The notes under the pieces are model-generated. The model saw only the letters and a list, made by a program, of their open reading frames with translations. It did no database searches and was not told where the DNA came from. From IMG/VR virus record IMGVR_UViG_3300037147_000155, positions 1 through 56,836 of that record: a stretch of 56,836 bases of DNA. One strand, written 5' to 3'. The DNA comes from a virus (lineage: Duplodnaviria; Caudoviricetes). Below, piece by piece: positions 3,818 through 56,539 of this stretch. Position 1 is the first letter of the stretch, and each line of letters begins with the position of its first letter. A program made the translations under genes and the position numbers.

Positions 3818-4351
3818 ATGCCCCGCCCCCCATTGACTGATGCTCAAAAGGATGTCCTGCGAGCCCGGCTGGCCAACGCCAGGGCCGCCAAAGCCCTCTT
3901 GCCACCGAAGCCCAAGGGGCCAAGGGTGCCACGTTCGAAGGCCACCCCCGCTACTACACCAGTAGTGGCAGCAGTCGCGCCACCCTACGCCGTGTGGACC
4001 GAATCCCAGTGGCTAACCTCCCACGTCGACCTCTGCAAACAGCGCCTGGCGCTGCTGAAATCTGATTTCGAGACTGGGGCCAAAATTGTCGGCCAGCGTG
4101 GGGACTCAAACGACCCTAGGTCATATAGCTGCTTCGTCTGTGCGAATCCGGTGGCTGAGGTCAATCCCTCTGGCAGGGGACCTGGCTGGGTCTGGAAGCA
4201 CGATTACCTCAACACCCGCACTGGCTTATACGAGTCCGTAGTGATCTGCAACCAGCACTGCCACACTGTCTACGTCAATGATACTCGCCTGCAGCTCAAG
4301 CTGAAGGACCTCATCAGGGGTGAGGTATCCGCTCCCGAGGCGGCCGCGTGA
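3818..4351 (+). CDS. Hypothetical protein upstream of TerL (possible TerS or DNA-binding Zn-finger)
   Basis: GTGA overlap with TerL; CFVC...CNQHC; function inferred only from position. Confidence 0.55.
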   Translation: MPRPPLTDAQKDVLRARLANARAAKALLPPKPKGPRVPRSKATPATTPVVAAVAPPYAVWTESQWLTSHVDLCKQRLALLKSDFETGAKIVGQRGDSNDPRSYSCFVCANPVAEVNPSGRGPGWVWKHDYLNTRTGLYESVVICNQHCHTVYVNDTRLQLKLKDLIRGEVSAPEAAA

Positions 4352-6072
4352 ACCTCGAACGCGCCATCCAACTCCTCGACAAGCTGCCAATCAAGAATCG
4401 CGAAAACGGCACCATCCACAACTTCACTCTATTCCCCAACCAGCGAGTGTTTTGCGACAAAATCGGCAAACAAATTAGCGACATTGGTATGGTCCGCGCC
4501 ATCGTCCTCAAGGCCCGCCGCGTGGGCATCAGCTCGGTAACAGATGGACTGTTTGTACCTCATTGTCTCAGCCGTCCGCAGGCCCACGCCAAGATAGTCG
4601 CCCACCGCGCCGACACGGCTGAGGGACTTTTCAGAGTCCCCCGTGACCTTGCCAAGGCCATGCCCTTCTCAGTCGGCGAAATCATGACTCGCAAGATCGT
4701 CTTTCACCACCCCGCGGGCAACAGCCTCCTTGACATCGCCACAGCGGGCTCGGTCAGCGGCGGACGAGGGCTGACTCTATCCGCGCTACACCTCTCTGAG
4801 GCCGCTCAGTTTCCCGGCGATGACTCCTTCCTCTCGCTGCTGCCCGCCGTCCAGAACGGCCCTAACTCTGTCGTCGTCATCGAGTCCACCGCCAATGGCC
4901 GTGTAGGCCTAGGCAAGCCATTTTATGAATTCTGGAACAGCTCTGTAGAAGGCAAAACTGGTTACATTCCTATATTCTGTTCTTGGCTCGACGACCCTGG
5001 CTGCGTGCGCTCCCCTGAGGAGGCCCGAGACGCCCCCAAGACCGACATCGAACGATCTCTGATGGCCAAGCCCTTCTACGCCAACAAGGCTCAAATCGCC
5101 TGGTTCCGCCACACCCTCGAATCCCAATGTCAAGGATTCGTACCTAAATTCTTCCAAGAATATCCGCACACCCCTGAGGTCGCGTTCACCTCCTCAGGCG
5201 ACCCAGCGTTCACCGAAGACGAGATCGCCTACGTGAGGGAGACCGCCTGCGAGCCCCTGATCCTTGGCCACCTCGAACTCAAGGACGGCAAGCCGACTGT
5301 GGTCCACTCCCGCCGCGGAGCCCTGCTCGTGTGGGAACTCCCGGTCAACAATCACAAATATTACATCGGTGCCGACGCCGCCAGCGGAGTAGAAGATGGC
5401 GACTTCGCCGCTTACGCGGTCCTGGATGGCACGACAGGCCACATGGTGGCTCGCTTCGCAGAGCGCGTCCACCCGGAGGCCCTCGCCCGCGAACTCTGGA
5501 TGGCTGGCATCCTCTTCAACAAGGCCCTGATCAACGTAGAGTTGACCGGCGGCCTCGGCAGAGTCATCCAGCGCATCCTCCGGGACGACTACCATTACCC
5601 AGAACTCTACGGCTGGAAAGGTAAGGACGATCGGCCAGCAGGGACCCCCCGCACCCATGCCCCCCGCGGCTGGGAGACCTCCAGCTACAGCCGCCGGATC
5701 CTAATCGACAACTTCAGGCTCTCACTGCGGGCTGGCATCAAAGACGATCTAGGAGGAGTCGAGGTCTATGATAGGTCCCTCATTGACCAGATGGATCGCT
5801 GCACTATGGCTGAAGGCATGAATTGGGAAGTTGAGAAGGGGCACGACGATATTTTATTTGCGTGTATGCTCGCCGTCACCACTTGCATCCAATACCCGCC
5901 TCCCCACGTAGGCGTCCGCAGCCGCCGCCCTGACACCGAAGCGGACGATCCGAAATCCCGAATGCCCATCATCGTCAAGAACGAGCTGCCCATCTCACTC
6001 GGCGACCACCTACGACAGCTGGAGCGCACCATGAAGCGCGCTGGCCGACCCGAGAGTTTAGAAGGTATCTAG
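4348..6072 (+). CDS. terL: Terminase large subunit
   Basis: LKARRVGIS Walker A, LHLSEAA Walker B, IESTANG coupling motif, YYIGADAASG and HDD RNase H-like nuclease motifs. Confidence 0.95.
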   Translation: MNLERAIQLLDKLPIKNRENGTIHNFTLFPNQRVFCDKIGKQISDIGMVRAIVLKARRVGISSVTDGLFVPHCLSRPQAHAKIVAHRADTAEGLFRVPRDLAKAMPFSVGEIMTRKIVFHHPAGNSLLDIATAGSVSGGRGLTLSALHLSEAAQFPGDDSFLSLLPAVQNGPNSVVVIESTANGRVGLGKPFYEFWNSSVEGKTGYIPIFCSWLDDPGCVRSPEEARDAPKTDIERSLMAKPFYANKAQIAWFRHTLESQCQGFVPKFFQEYPHTPEVAFTSSGDPAFTEDEIAYVRETACEPLILGHLELKDGKPTVVHSRRGALLVWELPVNNHKYYIGADAASGVEDGDFAAYAVLDGTTGHMVARFAERVHPEALARELWMAGILFNKALINVELTGGLGRVIQRILRDDYHYPELYGWKGKDDRPAGTPRTHAPRGWETSSYSRRILIDNFRLSLRAGIKDDLGGVEVYDRSLIDQMDRCTMAEGMNWEVEKGHDDILFACMLAVTTCIQYPPPHVGVRSRRPDTEADDPKSRMPIIVKNELPISLGDHLRQLERTMKRAGRPESLEGI

Positions 6073-6786: not shown

Positions 6787-7044
6787 GTGCGGCTGCGCAA
6801 GGAATCCCGCGCAGGTGCGTGGGCCGATCTCCAGGAGCGCCTGATGACCAACATGGCAGCCCTGGTGCCCGACATCACCTCCCTCAAGGACATGCTAGGC
6901 CTATCAGTCTCGATCGAAGAGTTCATGAAGACCGAGGTAGGCAGCCAATCGCTCGACCCCTCTGAGGCCCTGCAGCGATTCCTCAATGCCCCCTCTCCAC
7001 GACCAGCCGCCGCCCACGACCGTGACGAAGGTCCAGTGCAATAA
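6787..7044 (+). CDS. Hypothetical protein (frame is open from 6637; true start may be ACG at 6664)
   Basis: TAATG coupling to portal. Confidence 0.6.
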   Translation: MRLRKESRAGAWADLQERLMTNMAALVPDITSLKDMLGLSVSIEEFMKTEVGSQSLDPSEALQRFLNAPSPRPAAAHDRDEGPVQ

Positions 7045-8753
7045 TGGCCCGCCGAATCCGCTATGCTGCCGCCCGAGAGATCTCAAAACAAGACCCAGAC
7101 TTGACCATCGTGGCGCAGCTCGATAGCCTCCAAGATGCCGCCGACGCCGAACGCGATCGCCGCCTAGGCCAGGGATGGTTTGAGGAGGTGAGGACCTTCT
7201 TCAACATCGACCCGGCAACGTATAGCGCGCCGACCTTTAGGCCACGAATAGTCATCCCAGAGTTGCAGGTCCTGATGCTCAACGAAGCGACCGACCTCAG
7301 CGATGCGCTCCCGCGAATCTACATCACCCATAAGGAGGAGAGGGATAAGCTCCGTGAGAAGGCCTACCAGGAGAACTGGCGTCAGTCGTTCTACAACAAT
7401 AGGTTACTCGAAGCAGAAATATGGTCCCTCTTCTCGGGGACCGGCTTCGTGCAGGTAGGCTTCGATCCGCACGCCCGCCAGGGCAAAGGGGAAGTCTTCA
7501 TCGAGAGCAGGGATCCCGATACTGTCCACCCCGACCCCGGCACCAAGGACTGGAAGCGCTGGAGCTACGTCCAATTCGATGATCGCATGTACATCGACGA
7601 GGTGCGGTCGCGGTGGCCCGACTCTGGCTATCGAGTGATCCCCCGACGAGGCCCCGCGCCGGGCGTCCTGGCCAACTCTGGAACCATGGGCACCGGCATC
7701 AACATGCCCCCCGGCCCAATGTCGGCCGGGCCAGGAATGACGCAGCGCCTCATCAGCAGCGACAGCGTGGTCACCGTCCGCCACACCTTCATCCGCGACT
7801 ACACCGAGGTCGACATCACCAAGGACGAACGGGATCGCATGGCCCAGACCCTCGACAGCCTGTTGGCCATCCCCAAACGGAGGAGGATGTATCCAAATGG
7901 AAGGTGGATCGTCGACTGCGAGGGCATCATCCTCGCGGACGGCCCCAACCCATTCCCTCTCGGCCTATTCCCAATCATCCCCTACCGCGCCATGCCATCC
8001 CTTGGCTGGTTCTGGGGAGTGCCCCCCATCCGCTACACGCGCTCCATCCAACAAATCGCCGAGCGCATGATGACCCAGACCTTTGAGTCCGCGGTGCGCC
8101 TCAACAACGGCATGATCTTCATCGACGAGGCGACAGGGTTGGACGCTGACTCCTATAGTGGCTTGCCGGGGGAAATCGTAGTCATCAACGCCAACTCCAA
8201 GCCGCCCACCATCCAGTGGCCCACTCCCATGCCAGCCCACATGACTCAGCTGCCCAATATGTTGCTGGACCTGCAGAAGCGCCTGCAGGGATTCAGCCCT
8301 GCGCGGTCAGGCCAGACAAGTCCAGGCAATCAGTCCGCTGATCTCTATGACTCGACTATCTATCAGGCGCAGTCAATGACCAGGCTGCGAAGTCGCCTGA
8401 TGGCGGAGCCGATTCAAGCGACTGCTGAGATGGTCTTCTACACCATGTGCCGCTTTTATAAGGATGGAGCAGCATTCGCAGGCATCGACGGCAAGGACGT
8501 CAAGTGGACCAAGTGGACCGCCATGGGCGACGAATCGATGGAGGACTACGGCATCGTCCTCGACCCTGGATCACTCAAGCCAGTCTCCACGGCAGCCCTG
8601 CGCACCATCATCACCGACCTCCTGAAGGCTGGCCAGATTCCCCTCAAGTACGCCCTCGAAGTAATGGAGGTCCCCAACGGTGACGAAATCGCCGAGGCTC
8701 AGCAGCAGGCCCAAGAACTAGCGGCTTTGAGTAAGACTCGCAGGCCTCGATGA
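7044..8753 (+). CDS. Portal protein (P22/podovirus-like)
   Basis: 569 aa after TerL; GTGFVQVGFD, PDPG, FPIIPY...FWG patterns typical of portals. Confidence 0.85.
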   Translation: MARRIRYAAAREISKQDPDLTIVAQLDSLQDAADAERDRRLGQGWFEEVRTFFNIDPATYSAPTFRPRIVIPELQVLMLNEATDLSDALPRIYITHKEERDKLREKAYQENWRQSFYNNRLLEAEIWSLFSGTGFVQVGFDPHARQGKGEVFIESRDPDTVHPDPGTKDWKRWSYVQFDDRMYIDEVRSRWPDSGYRVIPRRGPAPGVLANSGTMGTGINMPPGPMSAGPGMTQRLISSDSVVTVRHTFIRDYTEVDITKDERDRMAQTLDSLLAIPKRRRMYPNGRWIVDCEGIILADGPNPFPLGLFPIIPYRAMPSLGWFWGVPPIRYTRSIQQIAERMMTQTFESAVRLNNGMIFIDEATGLDADSYSGLPGEIVVINANSKPPTIQWPTPMPAHMTQLPNMLLDLQKRLQGFSPARSGQTSPGNQSADLYDSTIYQAQSMTRLRSRLMAEPIQATAEMVFYTMCRFYKDGAAFAGIDGKDVKWTKWTAMGDESMEDYGIVLDPGSLKPVSTAALRTIITDLLKAGQIPLKYALEVMEVPNGDEIAEAQQQAQELAALSKTRRPR

Positions 8754-12253: not shown

Positions 12254-13237
12254 ATGGCGTACGGTACCATAGGCACGGGTATTAGCCAGCCAAGTGCACA
12301 GTTAGTAGCTACCTTGAATGCTATTACTCAGAAGTATATTTTCCCGACAATTGGTGATCAAGTGTTCATCCCAAGTCCTTTGTTTTGGGGACTTACGAAA
12401 CGCGGCAAAGACATCCGCGAGGGCGCTGAGATTGTGTATCCGTTGGCGACCACCGAAGAAATGACCGGCGGCAGCTACTACGGCGACCAGTTGCTGAACA
12501 CAACCGTGGTCGATTCGATCCAGCCCGCAAACCAGGTATGGCGACCCTACTACCAATCCGTCGCCGTCCCTGTGACTGACATCATCCTGGGCCGCGGAGG
12601 TCCGATGGGACTGGACCTCGTCAGGTCAAAAATGGAGATCGGCGGGGCGTCGTTCCTGCAGAAGTTGTGCAGAGCCATGTGGCACACTTCGCCACAGAAC
12701 ACCTCGACCGACATCGACGACCTCGACTCGTGGGTGCGGCTGACCTCCAACACCATCGCTGGCATCAATCGCTCGACCTCAACCTTCTGGCAGCCCGCAG
12801 CGAATGGCGCTGGCGGGGCGGCCGCGTTGACGCCCACTGTCTTCGAGAACGCCTACCAATCGGTCACCTATGGCTACGACGAACCCGACCTCTGCGTCAT
12901 GGACAACACTCGCTTCGCCGCCTTCAAACTTAACTTCACCACTCTCGTGCGCTTCACCGAACTGGAGCAAGACGACACCGCCCTGCAGGCTGGCTTCCGC
13001 TACCACTTCGTCGTCAACAACGCGGTGATCATGGCCGACCGCTTTACACCAGCCCAGCGCGCATACATCCTGAACTCCAAATATATCTTCCCCATCTTCA
13101 ACGCGAACGACTATTTCAAGATCGATCCCTGGATGCAGCCAACGAACCAGCGAGTTGTGGTATCGAAAATATATCTCACATGGCAGCTTGCTAACATTTC
13201 CCCTCGCATGTGCGTTTGTATCACTAATTTGGCATAA
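12254..13237 (+). CDS. Major capsid protein (HK97 fold)
   Basis: 327 aa after scaffold; GGAGG RBS; IAGINRST..FWQ, PDLCVM, YILNSKY and PTNQ patterns of podovirus-type MCPs. Confidence 0.85.
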   Translation: MAYGTIGTGISQPSAQLVATLNAITQKYIFPTIGDQVFIPSPLFWGLTKRGKDIREGAEIVYPLATTEEMTGGSYYGDQLLNTTVVDSIQPANQVWRPYYQSVAVPVTDIILGRGGPMGLDLVRSKMEIGGASFLQKLCRAMWHTSPQNTSTDIDDLDSWVRLTSNTIAGINRSTSTFWQPAANGAGGAAALTPTVFENAYQSVTYGYDEPDLCVMDNTRFAAFKLNFTTLVRFTELEQDDTALQAGFRYHFVVNNAVIMADRFTPAQRAYILNSKYIFPIFNANDYFKIDPWMQPTNQRVVVSKIYLTWQLANISPRMCVCITNLA

Positions 13238-39147: not shown

Positions 39148-39332
39148 TGATTCTGCCCCTGCTGCCAGTTGGTGCCAGCCTCCAGCCTGTGGACCTTAGT
39201 CTGCAGATCGACCACCTGTTGCTGCAACACCTTGATGGCCTGATGCAGCAGCCCATCGCTGTGATTGAGCTGCTCGCAGACCTTGACGAGATCTCGTAGG
39301 GGCTCATTTACTGTTGCGTATCCTTCAGCCAT
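39144..39332 (-). CDS. Small coiled-coil protein
   Basis: Overlaps end of polymerase; heptad pattern. Confidence 0.5.
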   Translation of the reverse strand: MAEGYATVNEPLRDLVKVCEQLNHSDGLLHQAIKVLQQQVVDLQTKVHRLEAGTNWQQGQNQ

Positions 39333-40590
39333 TCCACACCTCCATTCCAGTTGGATTTGAATCAGACCTTGGAGCCCAGTTGCCCCCGACTGCGCTCATG
39401 GATATCTCCGCGCCCACGCTCAGGCCACCCAGCTCGGGGATGGGCATGGTGAATATGCGCTGCAGGGTCGCTGCGGCCGCTGCAGCCTCGCTCTGGGGGA
39501 CATAACTCAACAGGTCGTCATGGACCGGCAGAACGCACCAGGAGGCCAGCGGGGTCTGCCACAGAGCCTCGATGTAGACATCCTGGATCGCCGAGGCCGT
39601 GCTCTGAGGCAGGAACGCTATGGCCCTCTTGGCGTCGTCGCCATTGGGCTCCCACCCTTGAGTCCTGCGATTGTAGTTGAACACATGGAAGAATCTGTGC
39701 CGGAAGCCAAAGGGATTCAGCAGGGAGCGATTAGGCGGGCCAGCCATGGTCAGCACCTGCCTCCACCAGCGCACGATGTCTTGGCCGGGCTCGGACGCCA
39801 AGTACACGTTCTGCAGCCTCCGTGCGTGGGCCACCGACTCGAAATCATCGGGGTACTCCTCGAACATCCGCTCGGGGGTGCCGCGATAGTTACTAAGATG
39901 CACAACTCTTTTAGCTGTCTCGCGGCTGGGCTTGTCGTAACGATGCTTGGCTTCTTGGCAGGCTGTCCTCAATGCTGCATCATCGAGGTGAAGATCAATC
40001 GCCTCATTATGGACCACGCTATTAAACCAGTCGTGAACGCCAGCCTTGGCCAGCGCGATGTATCGAGGGGACTGAGCGAAGTAGCCTACTAGGACTGCCT
40101 CGATCGCTGAGCTGTCACAAGCCATGATGACGTGGCCGGGCGGGGCGATGACCATCCTACGAAACTCGTCTGCGAGAGCCGACCTCTTAGGAATATTTTG
40201 GGCGTTTATGTTCCGGCAGGATTTCCTCCACGTACTCGGATGGTGCCCGATCGTGTAGTGGATGCGATTGTTTGCATCCAACTTCCACTTATAGGTCGAG
40301 ATCATCTTCCAGCGTTCCTTGCACGCGAGTACTTTCGCGAAGACGGGATACTTGCGGGCCGCCTTGAGCAGGAACTTTTTTTCTGTTGAGAGCGCGTTCT
40401 CATCATCGCTGTCTTTACGATGAGGGAGTCGCACGTTGAAGTGAGCCGCCAACGATTGAACTTCTAAATAGCTATCGGGATTGAAGTCGCAGACCTTGAC
40501 ATATTTGTTGGGCAAGGGAGGACGTTTGGCGCGAGGCTTCTTCACTGGGGCGCTGTCCAGCTCAGTCAGCAGGGTATCGATGTCAGACAA
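39325..40590 (-). CDS. polA: Family A DNA polymerase, polymerase domain (split gene, TTG start)
   Basis: NAQNIPKR; motif A DSSAIE; motif B RETAKRVVHLSNY; FLPQST; motif C VHDD. Confidence 0.9.
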   Translation of the reverse strand: MSDIDTLLTELDSAPVKKPRAKRPPLPNKYVKVCDFNPDSYLEVQSLAAHFNVRLPHRKDSDDENALSTEKKFLLKAARKYPVFAKVLACKERWKMISTYKWKLDANNRIHYTIGHHPSTWRKSCRNINAQNIPKRSALADEFRRMVIAPPGHVIMACDSSAIEAVLVGYFAQSPRYIALAKAGVHDWFNSVVHNEAIDLHLDDAALRTACQEAKHRYDKPSRETAKRVVHLSNYRGTPERMFEEYPDDFESVAHARRLQNVYLASEPGQDIVRWWRQVLTMAGPPNRSLLNPFGFRHRFFHVFNYNRRTQGWEPNGDDAKRAIAFLPQSTASAIQDVYIEALWQTPLASWCVLPVHDDLLSYVPQSEAAAAAATLQRIFTMPIPELGGLSVGAEISMSAVGGNWAPRSDSNPTGMEVWNG

Positions 40591-41938
40591 TCTCAGTCAC
40601 CCCAGTGAGATCCTTAGGAGCGCGCTTCCAGTATTTGCGCTTCTTGATGCTGTCGGGGACTAGTTGTTGAAGGTCAGCGTTCGCAGCTTCCCACTCTTGG
40701 TCCAGGCGATCCATGAATGCAGCCTGATAGACTGGATCCACAAGGAGTCCTCGTTCGCCCATCACTCGCAGCGGTTCATCCATGCGGATGCAGTGGCGTT
40801 CGAAGGCGGCCCAGCGGGATTGGGCAATGAGGGTGTCGCGGGTGCCGCAGTAAACATCCATCGTCACCGCGTTGTCCATGGCGTTGTAGAAGGCGGGTCG
40901 GGCGGCTGACTGGGACTTCCAAGGAGGGCCTGCGTAATAGAAGGGGGCCACTGCGCCAAGGCCCTTGCGGAGGTCGCTCTCCAGGAAGTGCCATGCCCAC
41001 ATTGAGGACACGATGCGCGCAGGGAGGCGCAACCCAGCGTGACGCAAACGCCTACTATCGAAGTTATTATCGGCATGTTCTATCACCTCCTCACTGAGGT
41101 CGAGGGCCTCCTGCAGCAGGCCAATGTAGGGTGGCTGCCAGGGGAAGGTCACCGCGCTGCCCCGCCGCACGCTGAAGCCTGCCCTTACGATGGTCCACGA
41201 TGCCCCCTCCTGTTCGATCTCCTCCTCGTCCAGGCGATCAGACTCTGGAGTCTCAATGTCGACCACGAGAGTAGGGATACGGCCGCCATGTTCACCGTGA
41301 ATGCTTTGGCCGCTTCGTATGTAATCGCGGACGCGATCCGGTGGCGGATCAAGTAAGAGATCATATTTGCTCTCCTGATAAGTACCTTGAGCAATCGAGC
41401 GGGCCCTGTTCAGCGCAAACACCGCCGACGCGTTCAACTTTTGCTGCCCCCGTTGGATGAAGGCTGGATGAAAAGTTGGAACGGCAGGGATTCCGTACGG
41501 CGTTGCCATGACATAACCCGCGTGGGACTCGATGCCCGATACCCCACATATTCGTCGTAGCGCAACGTTGCCCATTGGCACGATGACCTTAGGCTGGGCT
41601 CGCTCGATGAGTCCATCAAGATTAGGCCTACAATGGGTGATCGCGGCTTCGGCATCTCTGAACCTCTCCGGGAAATCCATCCATTTGAGTCGCAGTGGCT
41701 TACACCAGATGGTGTTGGAGGTCATCACATTCGACCTCTCGATGCCAACCAGGCTCAGCATGCGGTTATAGGTGAAGCCAGCGGCCCCGGCGAAGTTGCG
41801 GCCTGCGGCCATTTCCTCCATCCATGGGGAGTCGCCGACCAGCAAAACTCCTGAGTCACCAGAGCCGTCAGGTTCGATAAACCTCTGACCAAGTTCTCTG
41901 TGAGGACACGTTCCACAATGAGGGCCACTTGGAATCAC
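40583..41938 (-). CDS. Family-4-like uracil-DNA glycosylase fused to 3'-5' exonuclease (N-terminal part of split polymerase)
   Basis: CxxC, LLVGDSPW..E...GRNFAGAAG, PKVIVPMGNVA, PTFHPA; exonuclease VDIET, NFD, YNAMD; GTG start coupled to HNH stop. Confidence 0.85.
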   Translation of the reverse strand: MIPSGPHCGTCPHRELGQRFIEPDGSGDSGVLLVGDSPWMEEMAAGRNFAGAAGFTYNRMLSLVGIERSNVMTSNTIWCKPLRLKWMDFPERFRDAEAAITHCRPNLDGLIERAQPKVIVPMGNVALRRICGVSGIESHAGYVMATPYGIPAVPTFHPAFIQRGQQKLNASAVFALNRARSIAQGTYQESKYDLLLDPPPDRVRDYIRSGQSIHGEHGGRIPTLVVDIETPESDRLDEEEIEQEGASWTIVRAGFSVRRGSAVTFPWQPPYIGLLQEALDLSEEVIEHADNNFDSRRLRHAGLRLPARIVSSMWAWHFLESDLRKGLGAVAPFYYAGPPWKSQSAARPAFYNAMDNAVTMDVYCGTRDTLIAQSRWAAFERHCIRMDEPLRVMGERGLLVDPVYQAAFMDRLDQEWEAANADLQQLVPDSIKKRKYWKRAPKDLTGVTEIV

Positions 41939-42384
41939 TTGAGGCCCCCATGAGGGCAGTACCCATAGAATCCCAGAGACATATTGCAGTTGTGGCACAA
42001 CACACGAAATCCTCCCCGCTTTTCACGAAGCAGCCGTCCAACATATCCAGCTCCACTAGCTACAGACTTTCTATGTTGCTTTCCCCCACCATTAACGTGA
42101 TCGATAGCCATGAACTCAAAAGTGGCCTCACCACAGCAGGCGCACTTGCCGCCATACATCTCGATCATCTTTTTTCGATTAGACTGCCGCAATTTAGACA
42201 GCTTGCTAAGGTGAGCAACGTACTTAATAGGGTCATTGCGGATAGATAGGTAATACTGGCTCTTTTTAGCCTTACCCGCAACGCTACGACTCCATTTTAG
42301 CTTGTGAGCGTTCAATCGGAAGTGATTCTCTCGATAGTACTTCTTCGACCATGCACGCCTCTTCTCTGGAGTGTTATGGGGCAT
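41935..42384 (-). mobile_element. HNH homing endonuclease (same type as 11719)
   Basis: YGGKCACCGE...AIDHVNGGG...VLCHNCN...CPH. Confidence 0.85.
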
Positions 42385-43533: not shown

Positions 43534-43770
43534 CTAGTTGAGTTCCGAACTTTGCGGTGGGGACTGTTCGTGAGGCGCTTTCTGCCTCCTGACATCCCCA
43601 TACATGGCCAAACTCCCTTCCTCCCCTGCATCCTCGGGCAGCATCCCATGGACAACCGCTCCGATCTCGGTGCCCATCCGCGTGGCCACCTGCTCCTTGG
43701 ACTCCCCCTCCACCGTGGCTGTGATCTCGACGTAGAGGTGAACGAGGAAGCGATGGAGGATAGCCGTCAC
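43534..43770 (-). CDS. Hypothetical protein
   Basis: GTGA coupling with upstream gene. Confidence 0.5.
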   Translation of the reverse strand: MTAILHRFLVHLYVEITATVEGESKEQVATRMGTEIGAVVHGMLPEDAGEEGSLAMYGDVRRQKAPHEQSPPQSSELN

Positions 43771-44252
43771 TTGGACTCCTCACTGGCGAAGCCAGTCCAG
43801 GTACGGTTCAGGCCAAAATTCAGCCAGTCGCGATATCCAAATCGCAGCGCCTCATCCATGGCGGCCTCCTTGGACCAGTCACAGCTGACCACGCGGTAGG
43901 CGGCTACCACGAGCCCTGTGCGATCCTGACCGTGCTGACAGTGGACCAGCGCTGGCTTGGGAGCCTGAGCGATCGTCTCCAGGATCACTTCGAGCGCGCC
44001 CTGGGTGATGCCGATGGCATAAATCTGCCATGCTGAGATCGGCCTGGAGATGACGCCGGTTGGCTCCAGCTCAACCGCCTCCCGCTCGTCCTCGGCGAGG
44101 CCCTCTAAGCTGATCACTGACCTAAATTGTGCTCGGATGGCCGCGAATGCTGCCTCACCGGCTGGCCTGGCGCTACGCCATAGGTCATCGGTTACGCGGG
44201 TGAATGGAGTCGGAGCTGCCAAAGGACCCTCCACCTGAGGGACTTGGACCAT
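43767..44252 (-). CDS. Cys-based tyrosine/dual-specificity phosphatase
   Basis: LWRSARP, VISL, VHCQHGQDRTG (CX5R), W....A..EA. Confidence 0.9.
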   Translation of the reverse strand: MVQVPQVEGPLAAPTPFTRVTDDLWRSARPAGEAAFAAIRAQFRSVISLEGLAEDEREAVELEPTGVISRPISAWQIYAIGITQGALEVILETIAQAPKPALVHCQHGQDRTGLVVAAYRVVSCDWSKEAAMDEALRFGYRDWLNFGLNRTWTGFASEESK

Positions 44253-44253
44253 T

Positions 44254-44622
44254 TTATGTCTCCTTGGGAGCCGCTCTCCATTTCCCCGGTTTCGCAGGTT
44301 CAATTCCTGATTTCAGGATGTAATGACAAGCGGCGCATGTAATCCAACCTTCGTCCTTCATCGACACTTCAAATGAGGTACCCTCGCCACATCGGGGACA
44401 GGGATATGAACAACTGTTAATGACCAAAAACTGACGGAACGTAAGCTGATTCGTAGGAGTGGGCGCTATGTTCCCGCCTGCCATCGCCCACCACTCCGCG
44501 AATTCAACAAACAGATGGATGTTGGAATAGGTTCGCCAATCCCTGCCAGTTTCCTCGCAAAACGACTGCCATTGTCCCTGCTCGCTTACGTCCTCTGGCT
44601 TGCTCGCTCGCTCATCGGTCAT
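44254..44622 (-). CDS. Zn-ribbon hypothetical protein
   Basis: CPRCG...CAAC; AAGGAG RBS. Confidence 0.5.
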   Translation of the reverse strand: MTDERASKPEDVSEQGQWQSFCEETGRDWRTYSNIHLFVEFAEWWAMAGGNIAPTPTNQLTFRQFLVINSCSYPCPRCGEGTSFEVSMKDEGWITCAACHYILKSGIEPAKPGKWRAAPKET

Positions 44623-50386: not shown

Positions 50387-51556
50387 ATGACAGTTGTAGT
50401 AGAGTCGGCCACCGCCGCCTGGACCGCCCTCACTTCCCACCTCAATCAATGGTTTTATCAGCCCGACATCGAAGCCCTTGCGTGCGTCCTTGCGGCTGTC
50501 CGCGCCCACTACGGCGACGACGAGCCGGTGTGGCTATTCGTTATTGGTCCCAGCGGGAGCGGCAAGACAGCAATCGCGGCCAACTGCGCGGCTGGCTTCC
50601 CTCTGGCTCACTTGGAGGGCGACATCAACATGCGGGCCATGATGAACTGCCAACGGGGCGGTGAGAACCTAAGTGTCCTCGACGGCGAGAAGGGGTATGG
50701 TAAGTCGTTCATACTTGTCTTCAAGGACTTCACCTCGATCATCTCCAAGAAGGACGAGGATCAGAAAGAGTTGCTGGGACTGTTCAGGGAACTCTACGAC
50801 GGCGCATACGAACGCAAGACCGCTGGCCGGTGGGGATCTTGGAAAGGGAAGGCAACCATTCTAGCCTGTACTACTCCAGCCATCGAGCGCGCCTGGGCAG
50901 CCTACCGTGCCCTCGGTGAACGCTTCCTACAGGTCCGCTGGCCCAATAGCGATCCTATCCAGATCGCCCGCCGCGCCCGTGCCCAAAGGGGACTTGAGAA
51001 ATCCATCGCCCACGAGATGCGCGAACTGTCCCACGACTTGTTCAGGGCTACCTCTACTCATCCGGCCCCATCCCTAACCGAGGCGCAAGGATTCCAGATT
51101 GACTCCCTGGCCAGCATGATTGCCAAGCTACGCCAGCACGTCACCCGCGATAGCCATGGCGACCGATCAGTCATTGAGGTCAGCGCGGCCGAGGAGCCTA
51201 CACGGATAGCTAAATGTCTGGAGACCCTCGCCTGCCATCATGCCCTGCTATGGGGCCGAGACCACGTTGAGCAGGCCGACCTCAGAATAGCCGTCCGCGT
51301 GGGCTTCGACTCGATCCCCCACAATCGCTCAAAGATTATCCGTTCGATTCCATCTGACGCTCCCATGCCTGTAGTAGATATCCGCAAAATGACCTCCATG
51401 GTCCGCTCGACTATATTCTGGGTCGGCGACGAATTAGTGGCCATGAATATCCTCGAACAGATAGGCTCCATGGAAGACGAAATCAGCTATCGTTTTACCC
51501 CAGAATTTGCCGAAATGTGGCGTAACAGCAACCTACCCCCCTGCGTCGAGGTCTGA
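50387..51556 (+). CDS. AAA+ (MCM-like) replicative helicase with C-terminal winged helix
   Basis: IGPSGSGKT Walker A; LVFKDFTSI Walker B-like; ACTT sensor; GERF Arg finger; EEPTR. Confidence 0.7.
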   Translation: MTVVVESATAAWTALTSHLNQWFYQPDIEALACVLAAVRAHYGDDEPVWLFVIGPSGSGKTAIAANCAAGFPLAHLEGDINMRAMMNCQRGGENLSVLDGEKGYGKSFILVFKDFTSIISKKDEDQKELLGLFRELYDGAYERKTAGRWGSWKGKATILACTTPAIERAWAAYRALGERFLQVRWPNSDPIQIARRARAQRGLEKSIAHEMRELSHDLFRATSTHPAPSLTEAQGFQIDSLASMIAKLRQHVTRDSHGDRSVIEVSAAEEPTRIAKCLETLACHHALLWGRDHVEQADLRIAVRVGFDSIPHNRSKIIRSIPSDAPMPVVDIRKMTSMVRSTIFWVGDELVAMNILEQIGSMEDEISYRFTPEFAEMWRNSNLPPCVEV

Positions 51557-51669: not shown

Positions 51670-52002
51670 TCAAACTCTGCTCTCGCGCTCCCTCTCCCAC
51701 TCCGCACGGGCTCGCGCCAGCTCGGATTCGACAATAGGTATAATCTTGTCCGCATAATCAAAGCATGTACATTCATAGCCTTGAGCTATTACCCTCTCCC
51801 AATTTCCGTAATCGCTACCACATAATCCGCCTTGGTGCAATTCCTTCGCCAACAGCTCCCGCAGCCCGCTCCCCGCCTCTGAGGGCGCAGATTCGCGCCC
51901 TGGTTGACCAGCTACCTTCCCACAGCTGAGCCACTCCCCCTTCCCTTCAGTCTCTGGGATAGGGGAGTAGCAGGCCTTGGTGTGCTTATGCGTCTCAGAC
52001 AC
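51670..52002 (-). CDS. Hypothetical protein
   Basis: AAGGAGG RBS. Confidence 0.55.
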   Translation of the reverse strand: MSETHKHTKACYSPIPETEGKGEWLSCGKVAGQPGRESAPSEAGSGLRELLAKELHQGGLCGSDYGNWERVIAQGYECTCFDYADKIIPIVESELARARAEWERERESRV

Positions 52003-52282
52003 GATTGGCCTCCTTCGACCTGGCGAAAATCGCTGCCTTCTCCACGATCTCCTCCATGAGGAGCATGCAAATGGAGCACTCCATCGCGGATGGCTCAGCG
52101 TCGTGGCGGTTGCGGTGGAGGACGAGGTGGGCGCTTAGGTCATATTGTTTCGCTAGGCGATCGCGTAGGCGCTCGGCGTCGAAGCGGTCCAGGTTATGGC
52201 CCACACAGCACCATGCCGCTGGAGTGTTGGCTACCGGGTCCGCGGGCTCCCAGATAATCACTGCTGCGATTGGTTCGAGCAT
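51995..52282 (-). CDS. Hypothetical protein coupled to the JAB gene
   Basis: TGATG coupling; AAAGGAGG RBS. Confidence 0.55.
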   Translation of the reverse strand: MLEPIAAVIIWEPADPVANTPAAWCCVGHNLDRFDAERLRDRLAKQYDLSAHLVLHRNRHDAEPSAMECSICMLLMEEIVEKAAIFARSKEANRV

Positions 52283-53184
52283 CAGCTGCCTCCTTTACCG
52301 GTGTGATAGCCATTGTAGCTATCAAATGACATACTGTCATAGATGGCATCGACGGCCGCGGCGTGATCGCTGCCCGCTGCCTCGCCATAGCCTGCCAGGT
52401 TGGCCGCTGGCTTGATGGCCTCCTTGAGTTGGTCGCGATAGGTGTCGGCCGCCCTGATGCCCACTAGGATAACCTTGCCATCAGCCCGGCTGAATCGTCC
52501 ACACTCCAGCTTGATGCGCATGCGACACTTTGACTCTCCCTTCGCATTGATCACGATCTCAATGGGCCAGTTGGCATGGGCCTCGTCGGTCGCAGACCAA
52601 AACGCGCCCATCTGGACGTGACTGTGGATGGCGGCGATCGTGCCCGGCCTGACACGGAACTGGTCGTCTGGCATCTCTACGTGAGCGCCAGAGGCTGATT
52701 GAGGTGGAAAGTACATCTCGCGTATCGCCGCCCGGCCAGTGGACTGATTGAGGTCTCCGATGAGATATGCCATCCATTCGGTGTCAAACTCATCTGCGAG
52801 TTCAGTGCAGGCTCGGTACATATCAAGTGGCATCTCCACTTGTGGCTCGGCGGCGATGGGGCAGCCCTTGACGTCGGCCACCGGGCAGGTCCAGTCAGTG
52901 TCAGGCGGCCGCGTGGCTATGGGAACGATGACTGTAGTGGAATGGTCGCTTCCACTACGGCTGCCCATCCTGTCGCCGAACCTCTGCTGACCATTGCGCT
53001 GCCAGTCCCTGTGGGATGCGACTGACTGGCTGCCCTGGCTGCCCTCTGTGATATAGTTGGCGTTATGTGCAGCGACTGCATTAGATATGTCCTCGATCCC
53101 TGGCGCTGGCCTCTCGTCGACCAGGATCCAGTTATCGCCTGCCAGGATCTCCTTTATTTTGCGCTCACTACGTTTGCGTCCCAT
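52282..53184 (-). CDS. JAB/MPN+ metallopeptidase (deubiquitinase-like)
   Basis: TEWMAYLIG catalytic Glu; IHSHVQMGAFWSATD = HxH-x7-S-x2-D; GGGAGG RBS. Confidence 0.9.
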   Translation of the reverse strand: MGRKRSERKIKEILAGDNWILVDERPAPGIEDISNAVAAHNANYITEGSQGSQSVASHRDWQRNGQQRFGDRMGSRSGSDHSTTVIVPIATRPPDTDWTCPVADVKGCPIAAEPQVEMPLDMYRACTELADEFDTEWMAYLIGDLNQSTGRAAIREMYFPPQSASGAHVEMPDDQFRVRPGTIAAIHSHVQMGAFWSATDEAHANWPIEIVINAKGESKCRMRIKLECGRFSRADGKVILVGIRAADTYRDQLKEAIKPAANLAGYGEAAGSDHAAAVDAIYDSMSFDSYNGYHTGKGGS

Positions 53185-53233
53185 GGCTAAGTCCTCCCTT
53201 GGGGGCAAAGTACGCCCCCTGTTGCGATTGCTG

Positions 53234-53878
53234 CTAAACGGCCACATATTGATTCACTCGCAGACCAGAGTCAGACCAGTCGACGCGAAAGGTGTCTCGG
53301 ACTGGTAAGCCTAGTAGAATGTAGTAGATAGCAATGGATGCAGCCATTGTGCATGGCCCAACGTGGACCGGCACGCTCGCATACCCTGGCTCATTCTCGG
53401 CCTCGGTCGACCATTCGGCTGGACTGCCGGTGACGGTCAGACCGTGACCATCTGCGCCTAGCTCAACGTAGCGTCCATGATAGTGCCCTCCTGCCCTCCC
53501 TACGGCCTCGTAGACCATCCTACGGCTACGCAGCGAGTCAGTTGACACGATTACCCTATTGGCTGACCTGATGGCTTCAGAATGCCACTCAGGGTCAAAA
53601 TGGCCATGCGCGTTTATGGTGACATCGGGCCTGGCACGTCTGATCAACCCAGCCAGCGCGATTGACTTCGGCAGTCCGATGGCTGCTGAGTCAAAGGGTA
53701 GGCGATTCAGGTTATGCCCCTCGATCAGATCACCGTCAAAGAGTTCCAGCTGGCGGACACCGGCCAGGCCAAGGAAATATCCGCACCAACTTCCGATGCC
53801 GCCGCAGCCCACTACCAGCACGGTCTGGTCCTGGATAATGCCCAACGACTCTTGCCTGCTATACGTGTTGTCAGTCAT
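53234..53878 (-). CDS. E1/ThiF-family activating (adenylating) enzyme
   Basis: YSRQ, VLVVGCGGIGS, FDGDLIEGHNLNR, G.PK, STDS...R. Confidence 0.9.
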   Translation of the reverse strand: MTDNTYSRQESLGIIQDQTVLVVGCGGIGSWCGYFLGLAGVRQLELFDGDLIEGHNLNRLPFDSAAIGLPKSIALAGLIRRARPDVTINAHGHFDPEWHSEAIRSANRVIVSTDSLRSRRMVYEAVGRAGGHYHGRYVELGADGHGLTVTGSPAEWSTEAENEPGYASVPVHVGPCTMAASIAIYYILLGLPVRDTFRVDWSDSGLRVNQYVAV

Positions 53879-54123
53879 TTCGTCCTCCTGCGACCCTTAA
53901 CCCTCTTGGCCCGCTTGATTCGCTTATGGGTACCTGGCTTACTCAGCTTCTCCAAGGTGTTGGCTCTGCGCCGGCCCATCATCTCCAAGATATCCAGGAA
54001 TCTCTGCGCCAGCTCATATAGGTCCCTAGTCTGCTGCCTGTCAGCAGCATCTGCTGCCATGAGTATGTCAGGATCATCGATGTCATGCATACCCCACGTA
54101 TATCTATCCTCACTATCCATCAT
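53875..54123 (-). CDS. Small protein inside the Ubl operon (acidic N-terminus, basic C-terminus)
   Basis: GGGAGG RBS; ATGA coupling to E1. Confidence 0.6.
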   Translation of the reverse strand: MMDSEDRYTWGMHDIDDPDILMAADAADRQQTRDLYELAQRFLDILEMMGRRRANTLEKLSKPGTHKRIKRAKRVKGRRRTK

Positions 54124-54146
54124 AGTCCTCCCTTTGGGCAGCCTGA

Positions 54147-55388
54147 CTACCTGCCCCAGATAACGCCTGCGGCCTCCCTGGCCACCTCTCGTGCCCCAAA
54201 CTCGAATGCATTAGTGGCATCCATGCCCTCGTCCCGCCAATGGTCATACCAATCCCTTACTCCCTGTGGACAACTCACCTTGACCTCTGGCGACCAGTCG
54301 CTCATGGACACGAGTAGGCTACTCAGGTTGACCTCCTTGTAGGCGCGATTGATGCAGGCGACCACCCTGGTCAGGCTAGCCTGGTCAACAATCGCCGCAG
54401 GCAATCCCTGTGGCTGACAGCAGATCGATCCATGGTCCGCATGGGGCAACTTTGGACTCCATTCGGCTATCTTGGACTGATTGAGTTCAAACGCCCCCGT
54501 GGATGGCATAAACGTAATCCAGATCCAGGGATAGATTGGCTCAGCTTGCTCAGCGCTCCATTCGATCTCACAGACTCTATTGCGAACCATTTCGTCGTCA
54601 GGGGTAGGATCTTCAAAGCCATTAGCCCGCTCCCAAACCTCCCACCCAGGATAGCTGAATCGCGTCGGCTGATAGCTGAGGCGCTGCAGGACCTCAATGG
54701 CTCCATCGATTGACCTCGACTGCCTAATGGCGACTCCCTGTCCATTGAGCCACCCCGGCACAGCGAATACATTACGCGTGGCCAACCTGGCTGCCTCGGC
54801 TGCTATCTGCTGCTCCCTGCGGAACGCAGCCCGCTCAGCCTCCACTTGCTGCCTGACTATCCTCGCCTGCGTGGTCGCGGCCGCAATCATGGCATCTCTC
54901 TCCCTGCGTATGGCCTCGGCTGCCTTCCTGCGCAGATTGACCAGCAGCTTGCCACCCGTGGCGGAAGGCTCGCCACTGGACATCAGCCTGAACGTGCGGC
55001 CGCCAATGGTTAGATATCCTGGCTCGGCGGCAGTTAGCCGACTGATGACCTCCTCGTCTGACTCCAATGTGGCCACCGCGCCATTGTCATCCTGCCCTAC
55101 CAACTCCGCTGCTATCTCACTCACATAGCTACGGATAGCGTCAGCCAGGATAGCCGGCGACAGCGATGGCATACCAGCGTCATAGTTGGCCCCTAGATAA
55201 TTAGCCAGCGACCTCGCCCGCTGGCGATTGATGCTCATATACCCACGGTGCGGCCCAGGCAGATAGCCACGGAAGGCGACCATTTTGGTATTCCCTACCT
55301 GCTCAGTGACATCCCTATCGCCAATGGTTACATGGAGCTGTAGCGCCCGTGTGCCCTGCGGTGATAACTCTACCCTTATCTCGTCCAT
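54147..55388 (-). CDS. Coiled-coil protein with C-terminal E2/UBC-like domain
   Basis: KLPHADHGSICC resembles the E2 HPN/PH...G.IC active site; later VNLSS; flanked by Ubl, E1 and JAB genes. Confidence 0.6.
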   Translation of the reverse strand: MDEIRVELSPQGTRALQLHVTIGDRDVTEQVGNTKMVAFRGYLPGPHRGYMSINRQRARSLANYLGANYDAGMPSLSPAILADAIRSYVSEIAAELVGQDDNGAVATLESDEEVISRLTAAEPGYLTIGGRTFRLMSSGEPSATGGKLLVNLRRKAAEAIRRERDAMIAAATTQARIVRQQVEAERAAFRREQQIAAEAARLATRNVFAVPGWLNGQGVAIRQSRSIDGAIEVLQRLSYQPTRFSYPGWEVWERANGFEDPTPDDEMVRNRVCEIEWSAEQAEPIYPWIWITFMPSTGAFELNQSKIAEWSPKLPHADHGSICCQPQGLPAAIVDQASLTRVVACINRAYKEVNLSSLLVSMSDWSPEVKVSCPQGVRDWYDHWRDEGMDATNAFEFGAREVAREAAGVIWGR

Positions 55389-55470
55389 CGATGTCCTCCC
55401 TGGGATAGTGAGCATCCCACTGAGGGGACAATATAAAATTATCCCCTCTAGCGAAGCTCTCTAACCGTGC

Positions 55471-55725
55471 TTAGCCTCGCGCATCCTTGGCCACCAACTC
55501 AACCACTGTGGCCCTCAGAGCCGCCAGCGTCTGACTGCCTGCGCTGACCTCCGCCTTCGATCCATTGACCAGCACATTGAAGGTCCGTAGGCCATGATTG
55601 GCCGAATACTCCTTGGCCACGTCGGCCAGGGTGTCCTCGCCATCCGCCGACCCGACAGTTTCTCCATTAACTTTAATCGTTACTGATGGATAGCCGCCAT
55701 TCCCTGCTTCCCATACGTCTGTCAT
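55471..55725 (-). CDS. Ubiquitin-like (beta-grasp) protein ending in Gly
   Basis: 84 aa; VTIKVNG...TLADVA...FNVLVNG...VVELVAKDARG; GGGGAGG RBS. Confidence 0.75.
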   Translation of the reverse strand: MTDVWEAGNGGYPSVTIKVNGETVGSADGEDTLADVAKEYSANHGLRTFNVLVNGSKAEVSAGSQTLAALRATVVELVAKDARG

Positions 55726-56163: not shown

Positions 56164-56376
56164 TCAGGCATTGCGGATACCCCCCGCAATAGAGCGGAAT
56201 AGCTCAGCCACCTGCGGTCGCTTAGCCTCAACGATGCCATGCCCTGTGACTGAGGCAGCCATGAACTGAGCCTCATTGGCTCCTTTGGCCAGCGCAGCCT
56301 CAATGATGGGAGTGATCCAGGATTGCCAATCGCTACGATCAGTCACGTTGACCTCCAGGTCCACACTCGCCTGCAA
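56164..56376 (-). CDS. Hypothetical early protein
   Basis: GGAGG RBS before likely start VTDRSDW (about 56346). Confidence 0.5.
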   Translation of the reverse strand: MQASVDLEVNVTDRSDWQSWITPIIEAALAKGANEAQFMAASVTGHGIVEAKRPQVAELFRSIAGGIRNA

Positions 56377-56539
56377 TATAGTCTAACCATCGCTGACGGT
56401 TGAAACGCAAGCTCTGTGACTCGCAGAAGTCTGCTAGGGTATTGAGGTAGATCTCAGTAAATCCATCCCCATACTGAGAATACAGTCGATTATGTTCCCT
56501 TATCGCATCCGCCAAAGCTATAAAGTGTTTCTTGGTCAT
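56339..56539 (-). CDS. Small early phage protein (MTKKHFIALADAI...F....RFN..RW)
   Basis: GGGAGG RBS; sequence pattern I recall from small phage proteins. Confidence 0.7.
   Translation of the reverse strand: MTKKHFIALADAIREHNRLYSQYGDGFTEIYLNTLADFCESQSLRFNRQRWLDYIAGECGPGGQRD

Follow-up and report, generated by a model that had tools for sequence, protein, structure and literature searches.

In bacteria, conjugation of ubiquitin-like proteins (Ubls) is known from CBASS Cap2, Bil and Bub, and has so far been described as a weapon of the host against phages. In the literature covered, the sole phage-borne pairing of a Ubl with a JAB peptidase was that of the lambda/T1 tail-assembly proteins TAPI (Ubl) and TAPK (JAB plus NlpC/P60) (PMC1779556), and a preprint on Asgard viruses describes viral E1-like genes thought to exploit host ubiquitin systems and no full set (10.1101/2021.07.29.454249). 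No description of a phage-encoded cassette with Ubl, E2, E1 and JAB was found in the open full-text literature, subscription journals and supplements being outside the scope of that search. Here we analyse IMG/VR record IMGVR_UViG_3300037147_000155, the whole of which (56,836 bp) is referred to as the window, and describe a group of minus-strand genes, four of which probably make up the core of a module for ubiquitin-like conjugation encoded by the phage. This reading is built on modelled folds, motifs, invariant residues, and gene order and its recurrence; from these we infer the chemical steps, the E1 dimer and the targets. The six closely spaced open reading frames (ORFs) of the group are as follows.

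55471-55725, minus strand: Ubl, 84 aa, C-terminus KDARG; Gly84 codon at 55476-55474
54147-55415, minus strand, with a Met10 start at 55388: E2-like protein, 422 aa (413 aa from Met10), containing PHADHGSICC
53875-54123, minus strand: 82-aa ORF with an acidic N-terminal half and a Lys/Arg-rich tail; accessory or lineage-specific
53234-53878, minus strand: E1, 214 aa, a single ThiF-type adenylation domain
52282-53247, minus strand: JAB/JAMM metallopeptidase, 321 aa, with the JAB core at about residues 119-270 after a poorly conserved N-terminal region
51995-52282, minus strand: 95-aa ORF that may be an accessory gene, with a 1-nt overlap with the stop of JAB

Comparison with described systems

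An earlier note on this DNA had named Bil and Cap2/Cap3 among known Ubl/E1/E2/JAB sets. The cassette resembles them in its kinds of parts but is a copy of neither. Type I/II Bil (BilABCD) also has four separate genes, for Ubl, E2, JAB and E1, and no E3; its Ubl ends in Gly, with trimming needed in some members, and its E2 has a Cys nucleophile. The Ubl and JAB features of Bil have counterparts here in an invariant Gly84, extended Ubl homologues and an intact JAMM motif. BilD, however, is an IAD-AAD pseudo-dimer with an inserted catalytic-Cys domain (PMC10557695), whereas the E1 here is a single 214-aa domain with no invariant Cys. In the CEHH motif of BilB the His follows the Cys, whereas here an invariant His325 lies 7 residues before Cys332. 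The E2-like protein further differs from the E2 of Bil in its additional N-domain and 60-residue helix, and no match to Prok-E2_B (PF14461) was found in the genome. Bil lies on bacterial chromosomes, in contrast to the cassette, which lies on phages.

With Bub (6E/DUF6527) the cassette shares a homodimer-type minimal E1 that lacks a crossover-loop Cys and has an invariant Tyr (Y370 of BubCD, Y166 here); Y370 is reported to form a Ubl~Tyr oxyester (PMC11601596). Many Bub members also have a JAB peptidase and a single beta-grasp Ubl. The E2 of Bub, on the other hand, uses a Ser/His nucleophile, forms oxyesters and has no Cys, whereas Cys332 is invariant here. Bub also includes the DUF6527 serine protease BubE, while no PF20137 match was found in the whole phage record, and its genes are fused (Ubl-E2, JAB-E1 or E2-E1), while all genes here are separate. 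The match of the E1 to BubCD was weak (5e-6).

In CBASS type II Cap2/Cap3, too, the adenylation domain of the E1 is broadly of this kind (PADLOC E1-E2 models, 5e-15; Cap2 in the PDB, 5e-10), the E2 has a Cys, and conjugation is reversed by a JAB peptidase. Cap2, however, is an E2-E1 fusion whose substrate is the CD-NTase C-terminus, in contrast to the separate genes and dedicated Ubl found here. The PADLOC E1-E2 models matched the E1 part only, and no search was aimed at CD-NTase. Because there is no fusion and a dedicated Ubl is present, we do not assign the cassette to Cap2/Cap3.

In the ThiS-ThiF and MoaD-MoeB pairs the E1 is likewise minimal, with no catalytic-Cys domain, and its beta-grasp partner ends in Gly; those pairs, however, include neither an E2-like protein nor a JAB peptidase and are found among genes for cofactor biosynthesis, whereas both of these proteins are encoded here, in a phage replication block. 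TAPI/TAPK has no E1 or E2 and belongs to the tail module, its Ubl being a domain of a larger protein (PMC1779556); the present genes, by contrast, stand apart from the structural module and appear to cover both activation and transfer in full. PRTRC cassettes, which are carried by plasmids and integrative and conjugative elements, are also mobile-element sets with a ThiF-type E1 and a JAB-like protein, but matches to them were faint (PRTRC_A, E 0.0039 and 16.8 bits, cut-off 101.8; PRTRC_ThiF, E 0.0065 and 15.8 bits, cut-off 144.75) and, on the side of differences, no Prok-E2_D match was found here. The cassette is probably a variant form of prokaryotic Ubl conjugation that is borne by phages and includes a new E2-like family; in it a Tyr-type minimal E1 and a Cys-type E2 make an unusual pairing.

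Cassette layout and gene starts

The earlier note had listed five co-oriented genes, from Ubl to JAB, and all five were present on the minus strand where it had placed them. Intergenic distances across the six ORFs, in the order Ubl, E2-like protein, 82-aa ORF, E1, JAB and 95-aa ORF, are 82, 23, -4, -14 and -1 nt. Strong ribosome-binding sites had been claimed for all five genes, which holds for Ubl, the E2-like protein, the 82-aa ORF and E1 but not for JAB: a GGAGGA-type Shine-Dalgarno site lies before each of the six starts but that of JAB, whose site is weak and whose start overlaps the end of the E1 gene by 14 nt. The E2-like gene most probably begins at 55388, as had been proposed, since a GGGAGGA Shine-Dalgarno site precedes Met10 and nine of nine homologues begin there; residue numbers nevertheless follow the 422-aa ORF starting at 55415. 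That the ORFs arose by chance was ruled out by their conservation and synteny. A simple scan for promoters and terminators gave no excess of sites over shuffled sequence.

The other features attributed to these proteins from the letters alone, namely a beta-grasp-like Ubl ending in KDARG, a coiled-coil protein with PHADHGSICC, an E1 with intact GxGGxG and NLNR motifs and a JAB peptidase with an intact zinc motif, were likewise recovered, as described below.

Recurrence of the gene order in viral contigs

Three viral contigs found via the E2-like protein or JAB (L002, L003 and L007) carried the order Ubl, E2-like protein, E1, JAB. A scan of IMG/VR with an E1 alignment gave 64 viral loci on contigs of 13 to 189 kb. 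With profiles from close families, four genes on one strand and in the same order were detected at 9 of these loci. Many others had, upstream of E1, an ORF of 80-105 aa, mostly ending in (D/E)(A/V/K)xG, and a coiled-coil protein of 280-390 aa with the motifs H-Y-H-x4-6-D-C-W-G and N-x-x-S. A profile built from nine of these larger proteins of the distant group matched 16 loci, 9 of them by construction. Alignment of the distant larger protein to the E2-like family of the window with hhalign spanned 52 columns and was weak (E 0.024, probability 2%); it placed the distant Cys on Cys332 and the N..S motif on V-N-L-S-S366. The distant Ubl profile recognized the close-group Ubl at 2e-5.

When both groups were counted, all four parts were found in the order Ubl, E2-like protein, E1, JAB at 24 of the 64 loci, a count that is partly circular because the distant-group profiles were trained on members of the same 64 loci. 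Synteny, which the earlier note had put forward as a check on its proposal, is seen in these viral contigs. The other 40 loci comprised E2-like protein, E1 and JAB at a contig end (1), Ubl, E1 and JAB (2), E1 and JAB (8), Ubl and E1 (1), and E1 alone (28). The JAB gene follows that for E1 at 35 of the 64. The contigs vary in size (13-189 kb) and, by eye, in base composition, from which it follows that more than one phage lineage carries the cassette.

The distant version is exemplified by L019 (5661-8577) and recurs in L020, L022, L024, L025, L027, L028, L032 and L042, on contigs that are AT-rich by eye and include some of 161 and 189 kb. It comprises a Ubl ending in YD(V/E)AG, an HYH..DCWG protein of about 290 aa, E1 and JAB, and directly follows apparent clamp-loader and sliding-clamp genes, which were identified by eye.

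BLAST of 50,697 deposited phage genomes with the operon DNA, the E2-like protein, E1 and the distant-group E2-like protein gave no match, and two pattern-based scans of one genome for each of 185,579 prokaryotic species revealed no cassette: one was empty, and the other gave two look-alikes of 22-23 residues without E1, E2-like protein or JAB alongside. As these scans were pattern-limited and of limited sensitivity, we use 'phage-only' as a working statement, absence from bacteria not being proven. A metagenome scan for loci returned two short fragments only. Ten distant E2-like clusters were all metagenomic singletons or pairs, some on contigs of 50-61 kb, and a viral locus search with single distant E2-like proteins gave no loci.

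E1

The E1 matched Pfam ThiF at 8.4e-21, and its GxGGxG and NLNR motifs are intact. A profile built from three phage orthologues matched, in the PDB, PaaA (1.1e-13), ThiF (8e-13), UBA5 (1e-11), MccB (2.8e-11), Cap2 and BubCD (at the values given above), and further TcdA, NAE1/UBA3 and MoeB; all of these alignments end ahead of the crossover loop. Homologues at E<=1e-20 numbered 88, all from metagenome or read assemblies, with contigs of up to 45-71 kb. Residues G24, G26, G27, G29, D48, N56, R59, K71 and D114 are invariant in 54 of 54 aligned homologues, and we take them to be the nucleotide-binding and Mg-binding residues of MoeB and ThiF. R8, which is nearly invariant, is presumably the trans Arg finger.

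Conservation extends into the crossover region, where G165, Y166, P170 and P175 are invariant in the same 54 homologues.

53383-53381, minus strand: E1 Tyr166, crossover loop, present in 54 of 54 homologues

The single nearby Cys, C176, is kept in 48 of 54, being replaced by Ser in four, Val in one and Ala in one. When E1s of the distant cassettes were included, a Gly-Tyr motif was matched by regular expression in 21 of 25 cassette E1s, and the C176 position was Ala in 12 of those 21; of the four without a match (L016, L023, L031 and L036), the two read by eye, L023 and L031, retain the Tyr but not the Gly. Because C176 varies and Y166 does not, we describe this E1 as lacking a conserved catalytic Cys but having an invariant loop Tyr. 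The E1 of L034 (6992-8023) has a long Cys-rich C-terminal extension resembling a zinc ribbon, which the E1 of the window lacks.

The Ubl and the JAB peptidase

The AlphaFold2 model of the Ubl (pLDDT 84.7) showed a single beta-grasp with a flexible, low-confidence tail. All 50 of the Foldseek PDB matches listed were ubiquitin, SUMO, ISG15 or similar ubiquitin-fold chains (probability 1.00, TM 0.52-0.62 and E 2e-3 to 6e-3 among them), and the beta-grasp fold can be taken as settled at the level of the model. Twelve homologues were found at 60-70% identity. In a 14-sequence alignment the tail A-K-(D/E)-(A/S)-R-G is almost fixed, with R83 and G84 invariant, and 5 of the 14 Ubls carry 2-7 extra residues beyond the position of Gly84. 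Judged from these sequences, such extensions have the pattern of precursors that need trimming by a peptidase. A few Ubl homologues at cassette loci lack a Gly at the C-terminus or close to it (L017, 4907-5149; L032, 5767-6018; L016, 5623-5901); their C-termini read YEKAA, DTPASS and KDQRAVWLI, which is unexplained if the terminal Gly is essential.

The JAB protein matched Pfam Prok-JAB at 5.5e-5 with 23.5 bits, just under the 25-bit cut-off, and its closest PDB sequence matches were to Rpn11 (E 0.8). The JAMM motif is nevertheless complete (E157, H208-x-H210, S218 and D221, in the arrangement E ... HxH-x7-S-xx-D) and invariant in three phage orthologues. A long Cys-rich C-terminal extension resembling a zinc ribbon, absent from the JAB of the window, is present in that of L007 (6752-7768).

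The E2-like protein

No family in Pfam, PHROG, PADLOC or NCBIfam matched the E2-like protein. A Pfam scan of 60 of its relatives matched no E2 family either, returning only DivIVA (3), ATG11 (1) and ATP-synt_B (1), which we read as coiled-coil noise. A profile search of 1.84 billion representatives nonetheless retrieved 196 proteins at E<=1e-3, 118 of them at <=1e-10 and 15 at <=1e-30, and on these sequence matches it belongs to a real protein family without a Pfam entry. The 150 listed representatives and the window protein were aligned to the family profile. Wherever a row has a residue at these positions, His325 and Cys332 are kept (150 of 150 rows each), as is Ser366 (151 of 151).

54443-54441, minus strand: H325, invariant in the family alignment
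54422-54420, minus strand: C332, invariant in the family alignment
54320-54318, minus strand: S366, invariant in the family alignment

Members of the family are 85-786 aa long and share a core at about profile positions 110-380; in view of this wide range of lengths around a shared core, the N-terminal part is a candidate for the region that selects targets.

The AlphaFold2 model (pLDDT 84.6) comprised an N-domain (residues 13-107), a disordered stretch (111-131), a hairpin (134-143), a 60-residue helix (154-213), which is the coiled coil that had been predicted, and a C-domain (217-411). In the C-domain, four or five strands are followed by a loop with L-P-H325-x6-C332, a helix (345-358) and more helices, the motif lying between the strand at 297-302 and that helix. 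In the model, this order of elements is that of a UBC fold, and within it H325 and C332 show the HPN-type placement of His and Cys that is a feature of the UBC/E2 superfamily. The 13-residue spacing from Cys332 to helix 2 is near that in canonical E2s. Among 60 diverse relatives G138 and L144 are nearly invariant (residues 138-144, 54984-55004); they lie in the hairpin LTIGGRTFRL before the long helix, which may be a docking element for E1 or Ubl.

Structural matches were weak. About 22 of the 50 weak Foldseek matches listed were E2 or UEV chains. When the top 972 Foldseek chains were realigned with VIA-align, the best 50 rows divided into 24 that cover the long helix alone and 26 that cover residues 204-388, and all 26 of the latter are E2, UEV or Cap2 chains by entry title. 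In the ESM Atlas, residues 215-422 matched viral clusters at 0.90 and, at 0.86, a cluster in which 11% of members carry Prok-E2_D, the Atlas model itself being poor (pTM 0.27). A PDB fold search with the whole model gave coiled-coil matches to helix 154-216 only and therefore has no bearing on the C-domain, and a BFVD fold search with the whole model gave nothing at E<=1e-3. Three results were negative: Foldseek of the model against the PDB gave nothing at E<=1e-3; the family profile retrieved no E2 chain from the PDB; and no match to UQ_con, Prok-E2_B or Prok-E2_D (PF00179, PF14461 and PF14460, respectively) was found anywhere in the genome. We rate a UBC/E2-like fold of the modelled C-domain as probable and not higher, because the structural matches are weak and much of the weight falls on gene context and on the fitting position of the invariant His and Cys.

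Accessory ORFs and genomic setting

The earlier note had counted the 82-aa ORF as part of the operon set. It has a strong Shine-Dalgarno site and overlaps the E1 start by 4 nt, but no sequence homologue was detectable at any of the 64 viral loci, and in L003 and L007 the E2-like gene adjoins E1 directly; a core role for this ORF was therefore ruled out. In L002 a 72-aa ORF with a basic tail occupies the same position. The 95-aa ORF, also with a strong Shine-Dalgarno site, gave no family match in Pfam, PHROG or NCBIfam scans and has a same-position homologue in the closest relative only (L002/L009, 8e-22). As the one ORF has no homologues and the other is found in the closest relative only, we take the core to be four genes. 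A 66-aa gene upstream of Ubl (56339-56539, minus strand) has a homologue at the corresponding position of L002 (5100-5330, 2e-16), and L003 has a small protein that is similar by eye downstream of JAB (7970-8212).

The window is the entire IMG/VR record, with a CheckV completeness of 100% and a topology given as 'linear', which means without detected end repeats. The structural and replication genes identified are those of a tailed phage.

4348-6072: large terminase
7044-8753: portal
12254-13237: major head protein
39325-41998, minus strand: family-A DNA polymerase, split over two ORFs, the upstream one with a UDG-superfamily domain (2.4e-17)

The nearest terminases of deposited phages are at most about 27% identical to that of the window, and no tRNA genes were found in the window. 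The cassette, which the earlier note had assigned to a presumed early region, sits in a leftward block shared with the replication genes. This block also contains a 178-aa protein (43767-44303, minus strand) with tyrosine/dual-specificity phosphatase matches (Y_phosphatase2, 1.5e-7), a further protein-modification enzyme in the phage. Near the downstream end of the operon, a gene in the opposite direction (50387-51556, plus strand) encodes a 389-aa P-loop NTPase with a weak AAA_16 match (3e-6, under the cut-off). Among the neighbours scanned (7 + 23 + 16 window ORFs) there were no thiamine, molybdenum cofactor (Moco) or sulfur-relay families, in agreement with the earlier note, and no ThiG/ThiH, MoaE, rhodanese, IscS/cysteine desulfurase or other sulfur acceptors.

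Discussion

If the four core genes encode a Ubl conjugation module, as we think probable, their products may act as follows. JAB would expose the terminal Gly of the Ubl where a tail is present, and would probably also strip the tag from targets. The minimal E1, presumably homodimeric, would adenylate Gly84 using ATP, and the acyl group would then pass to Cys332 of the E2-like protein as a thioester, either straight from the adenylate or via an oxyester on E1 Tyr166, as in Bub. The E2-like protein, with its variable N-terminal region as the candidate target-recognition part, would pass the Ubl to target lysines without a separate E3; the proteins so tagged may belong to the host, to the phage itself or to rival phages. 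Transfer without an E3 has been proposed for Bil (PMC11601596). The phage-borne writer and eraser proposed in the earlier note is supported as machinery, through folds, invariant residues and conserved order. The purposes suggested there, to tag proteins of the host or of competing phages or to jam or reverse host Ubl-based defence such as Bil or CBASS, are candidates among which the results favour none. Its E2 part, which rests on a weak structural match, motif and context without a sequence match to an E2 family, is held with moderate confidence.

The same parts could instead serve a pathway like ThiS/ThiF or MoaD/MoeB, for sulfur transfer or small-molecule synthesis. The E1 would adenylate the beta-grasp protein, whose Gly would become a thiocarboxylate and donate sulfur to a modified base, nucleotide or cofactor made while the phage replicates; the 422-aa protein would bear a persulfide, and not Ubl, on its Cys, and JAB would do no more than trim the carrier. 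JAB-trimmed sulfur carriers are known from the CysO/Mec and QbsE/QbsD systems. The beta-grasp fold alone cannot tell a protein tag from a sulfur carrier, and a ThiF-like E1 without Cys, a weak ThiS match and the DNA-metabolism neighbourhood are all consistent with such a pathway. However, no sulfur-transfer partner was found among the neighbours scanned, matches of the E1 to sulfur-carrier families were all far under those families' own cut-offs, and the C-domain of the 422-aa protein, with its HPN-like His before the Cys, aligned structurally to E2/UEV chains only in the rows listed. An E2-like partner is, moreover, not known in sulfur-carrier operons (PMC10557695), and we regard this pathway as unlikely. 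We give very little credence to an MccB/PaaA-kind peptide modifier, in which the E1 would alter the C-terminus of a small protein into a modified product and not a tag, and the 422-aa protein would be a Cys/His enzyme of some unrelated kind, for example a transferase or protease. PaaA was the top PDB profile match of the E1, MccB was also matched, and there is no sequence-based E2 assignment; but the PaaA match covers the shared Rossmann core alone (positions 16-152), and in the model the small protein folds into a beta-grasp of about 70 residues that ends in a ubiquitin-type tail, unlike a short precursor peptide. A JAB with a Gly-ending beta-grasp protein is, furthermore, the classic Ubl pairing (PMC1779556).

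It is also conceivable that a Bil-like defence or superinfection-exclusion system rides on the phage, tagging structural proteins of competitors and protecting the infected or lysogenized cell for the resident phage. Defence systems borne by temperate phages usually also appear in bacterial genomes as prophages, whereas neither pattern scan of bacterial genomes revealed the cassette. An integrase or lysogeny module was not seen either, although no search was aimed at them, the E1 and E2 lack Bil's defining features, and PADLOC yielded generic E1 matches only. On the other hand, the parts list (Ubl, E2, JAB and E1) is that of Bil, Bil tags the central tail fibre of phages, and known bacterial Ubl systems act against phages (PMC11601596); E2-like proteins of 85-786 aa that share mainly the core at about 110-380 are also what would be expected for changing targets. 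On balance this explanation appears improbable.

We thus favour a conjugation module that belongs to the phage, and it is probable that this phage tags proteins itself and that many other uncultured phages do so too. A bolder version, which we put forward only tentatively and think rather doubtful, is that many uncultured phages carry their own writer and eraser built on an unrecognized E2 family with mixed Tyr-oxyester to Cys-thioester chemistry, used offensively during infection to tag proteins of the host, such as defence or replication factors, via the variable N-terminal regions of the E2-like proteins, as a viral mirror image of Bil. A complete and conserved set of Ubl, E2, E1 and JAB that recurs among viruses would show phages using the same chemistry themselves, and would open a search for proteins tagged by phages. 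It would add a new E2 family, without a Pfam entry and with a canonical-looking His..Cys site, and would offer a natural case in which to ask whether an E2 with a Cys can be fed by a minimal E1 with a Tyr, a question relevant to the evolution of E1-E2 cascades from ThiF-like enzymes.

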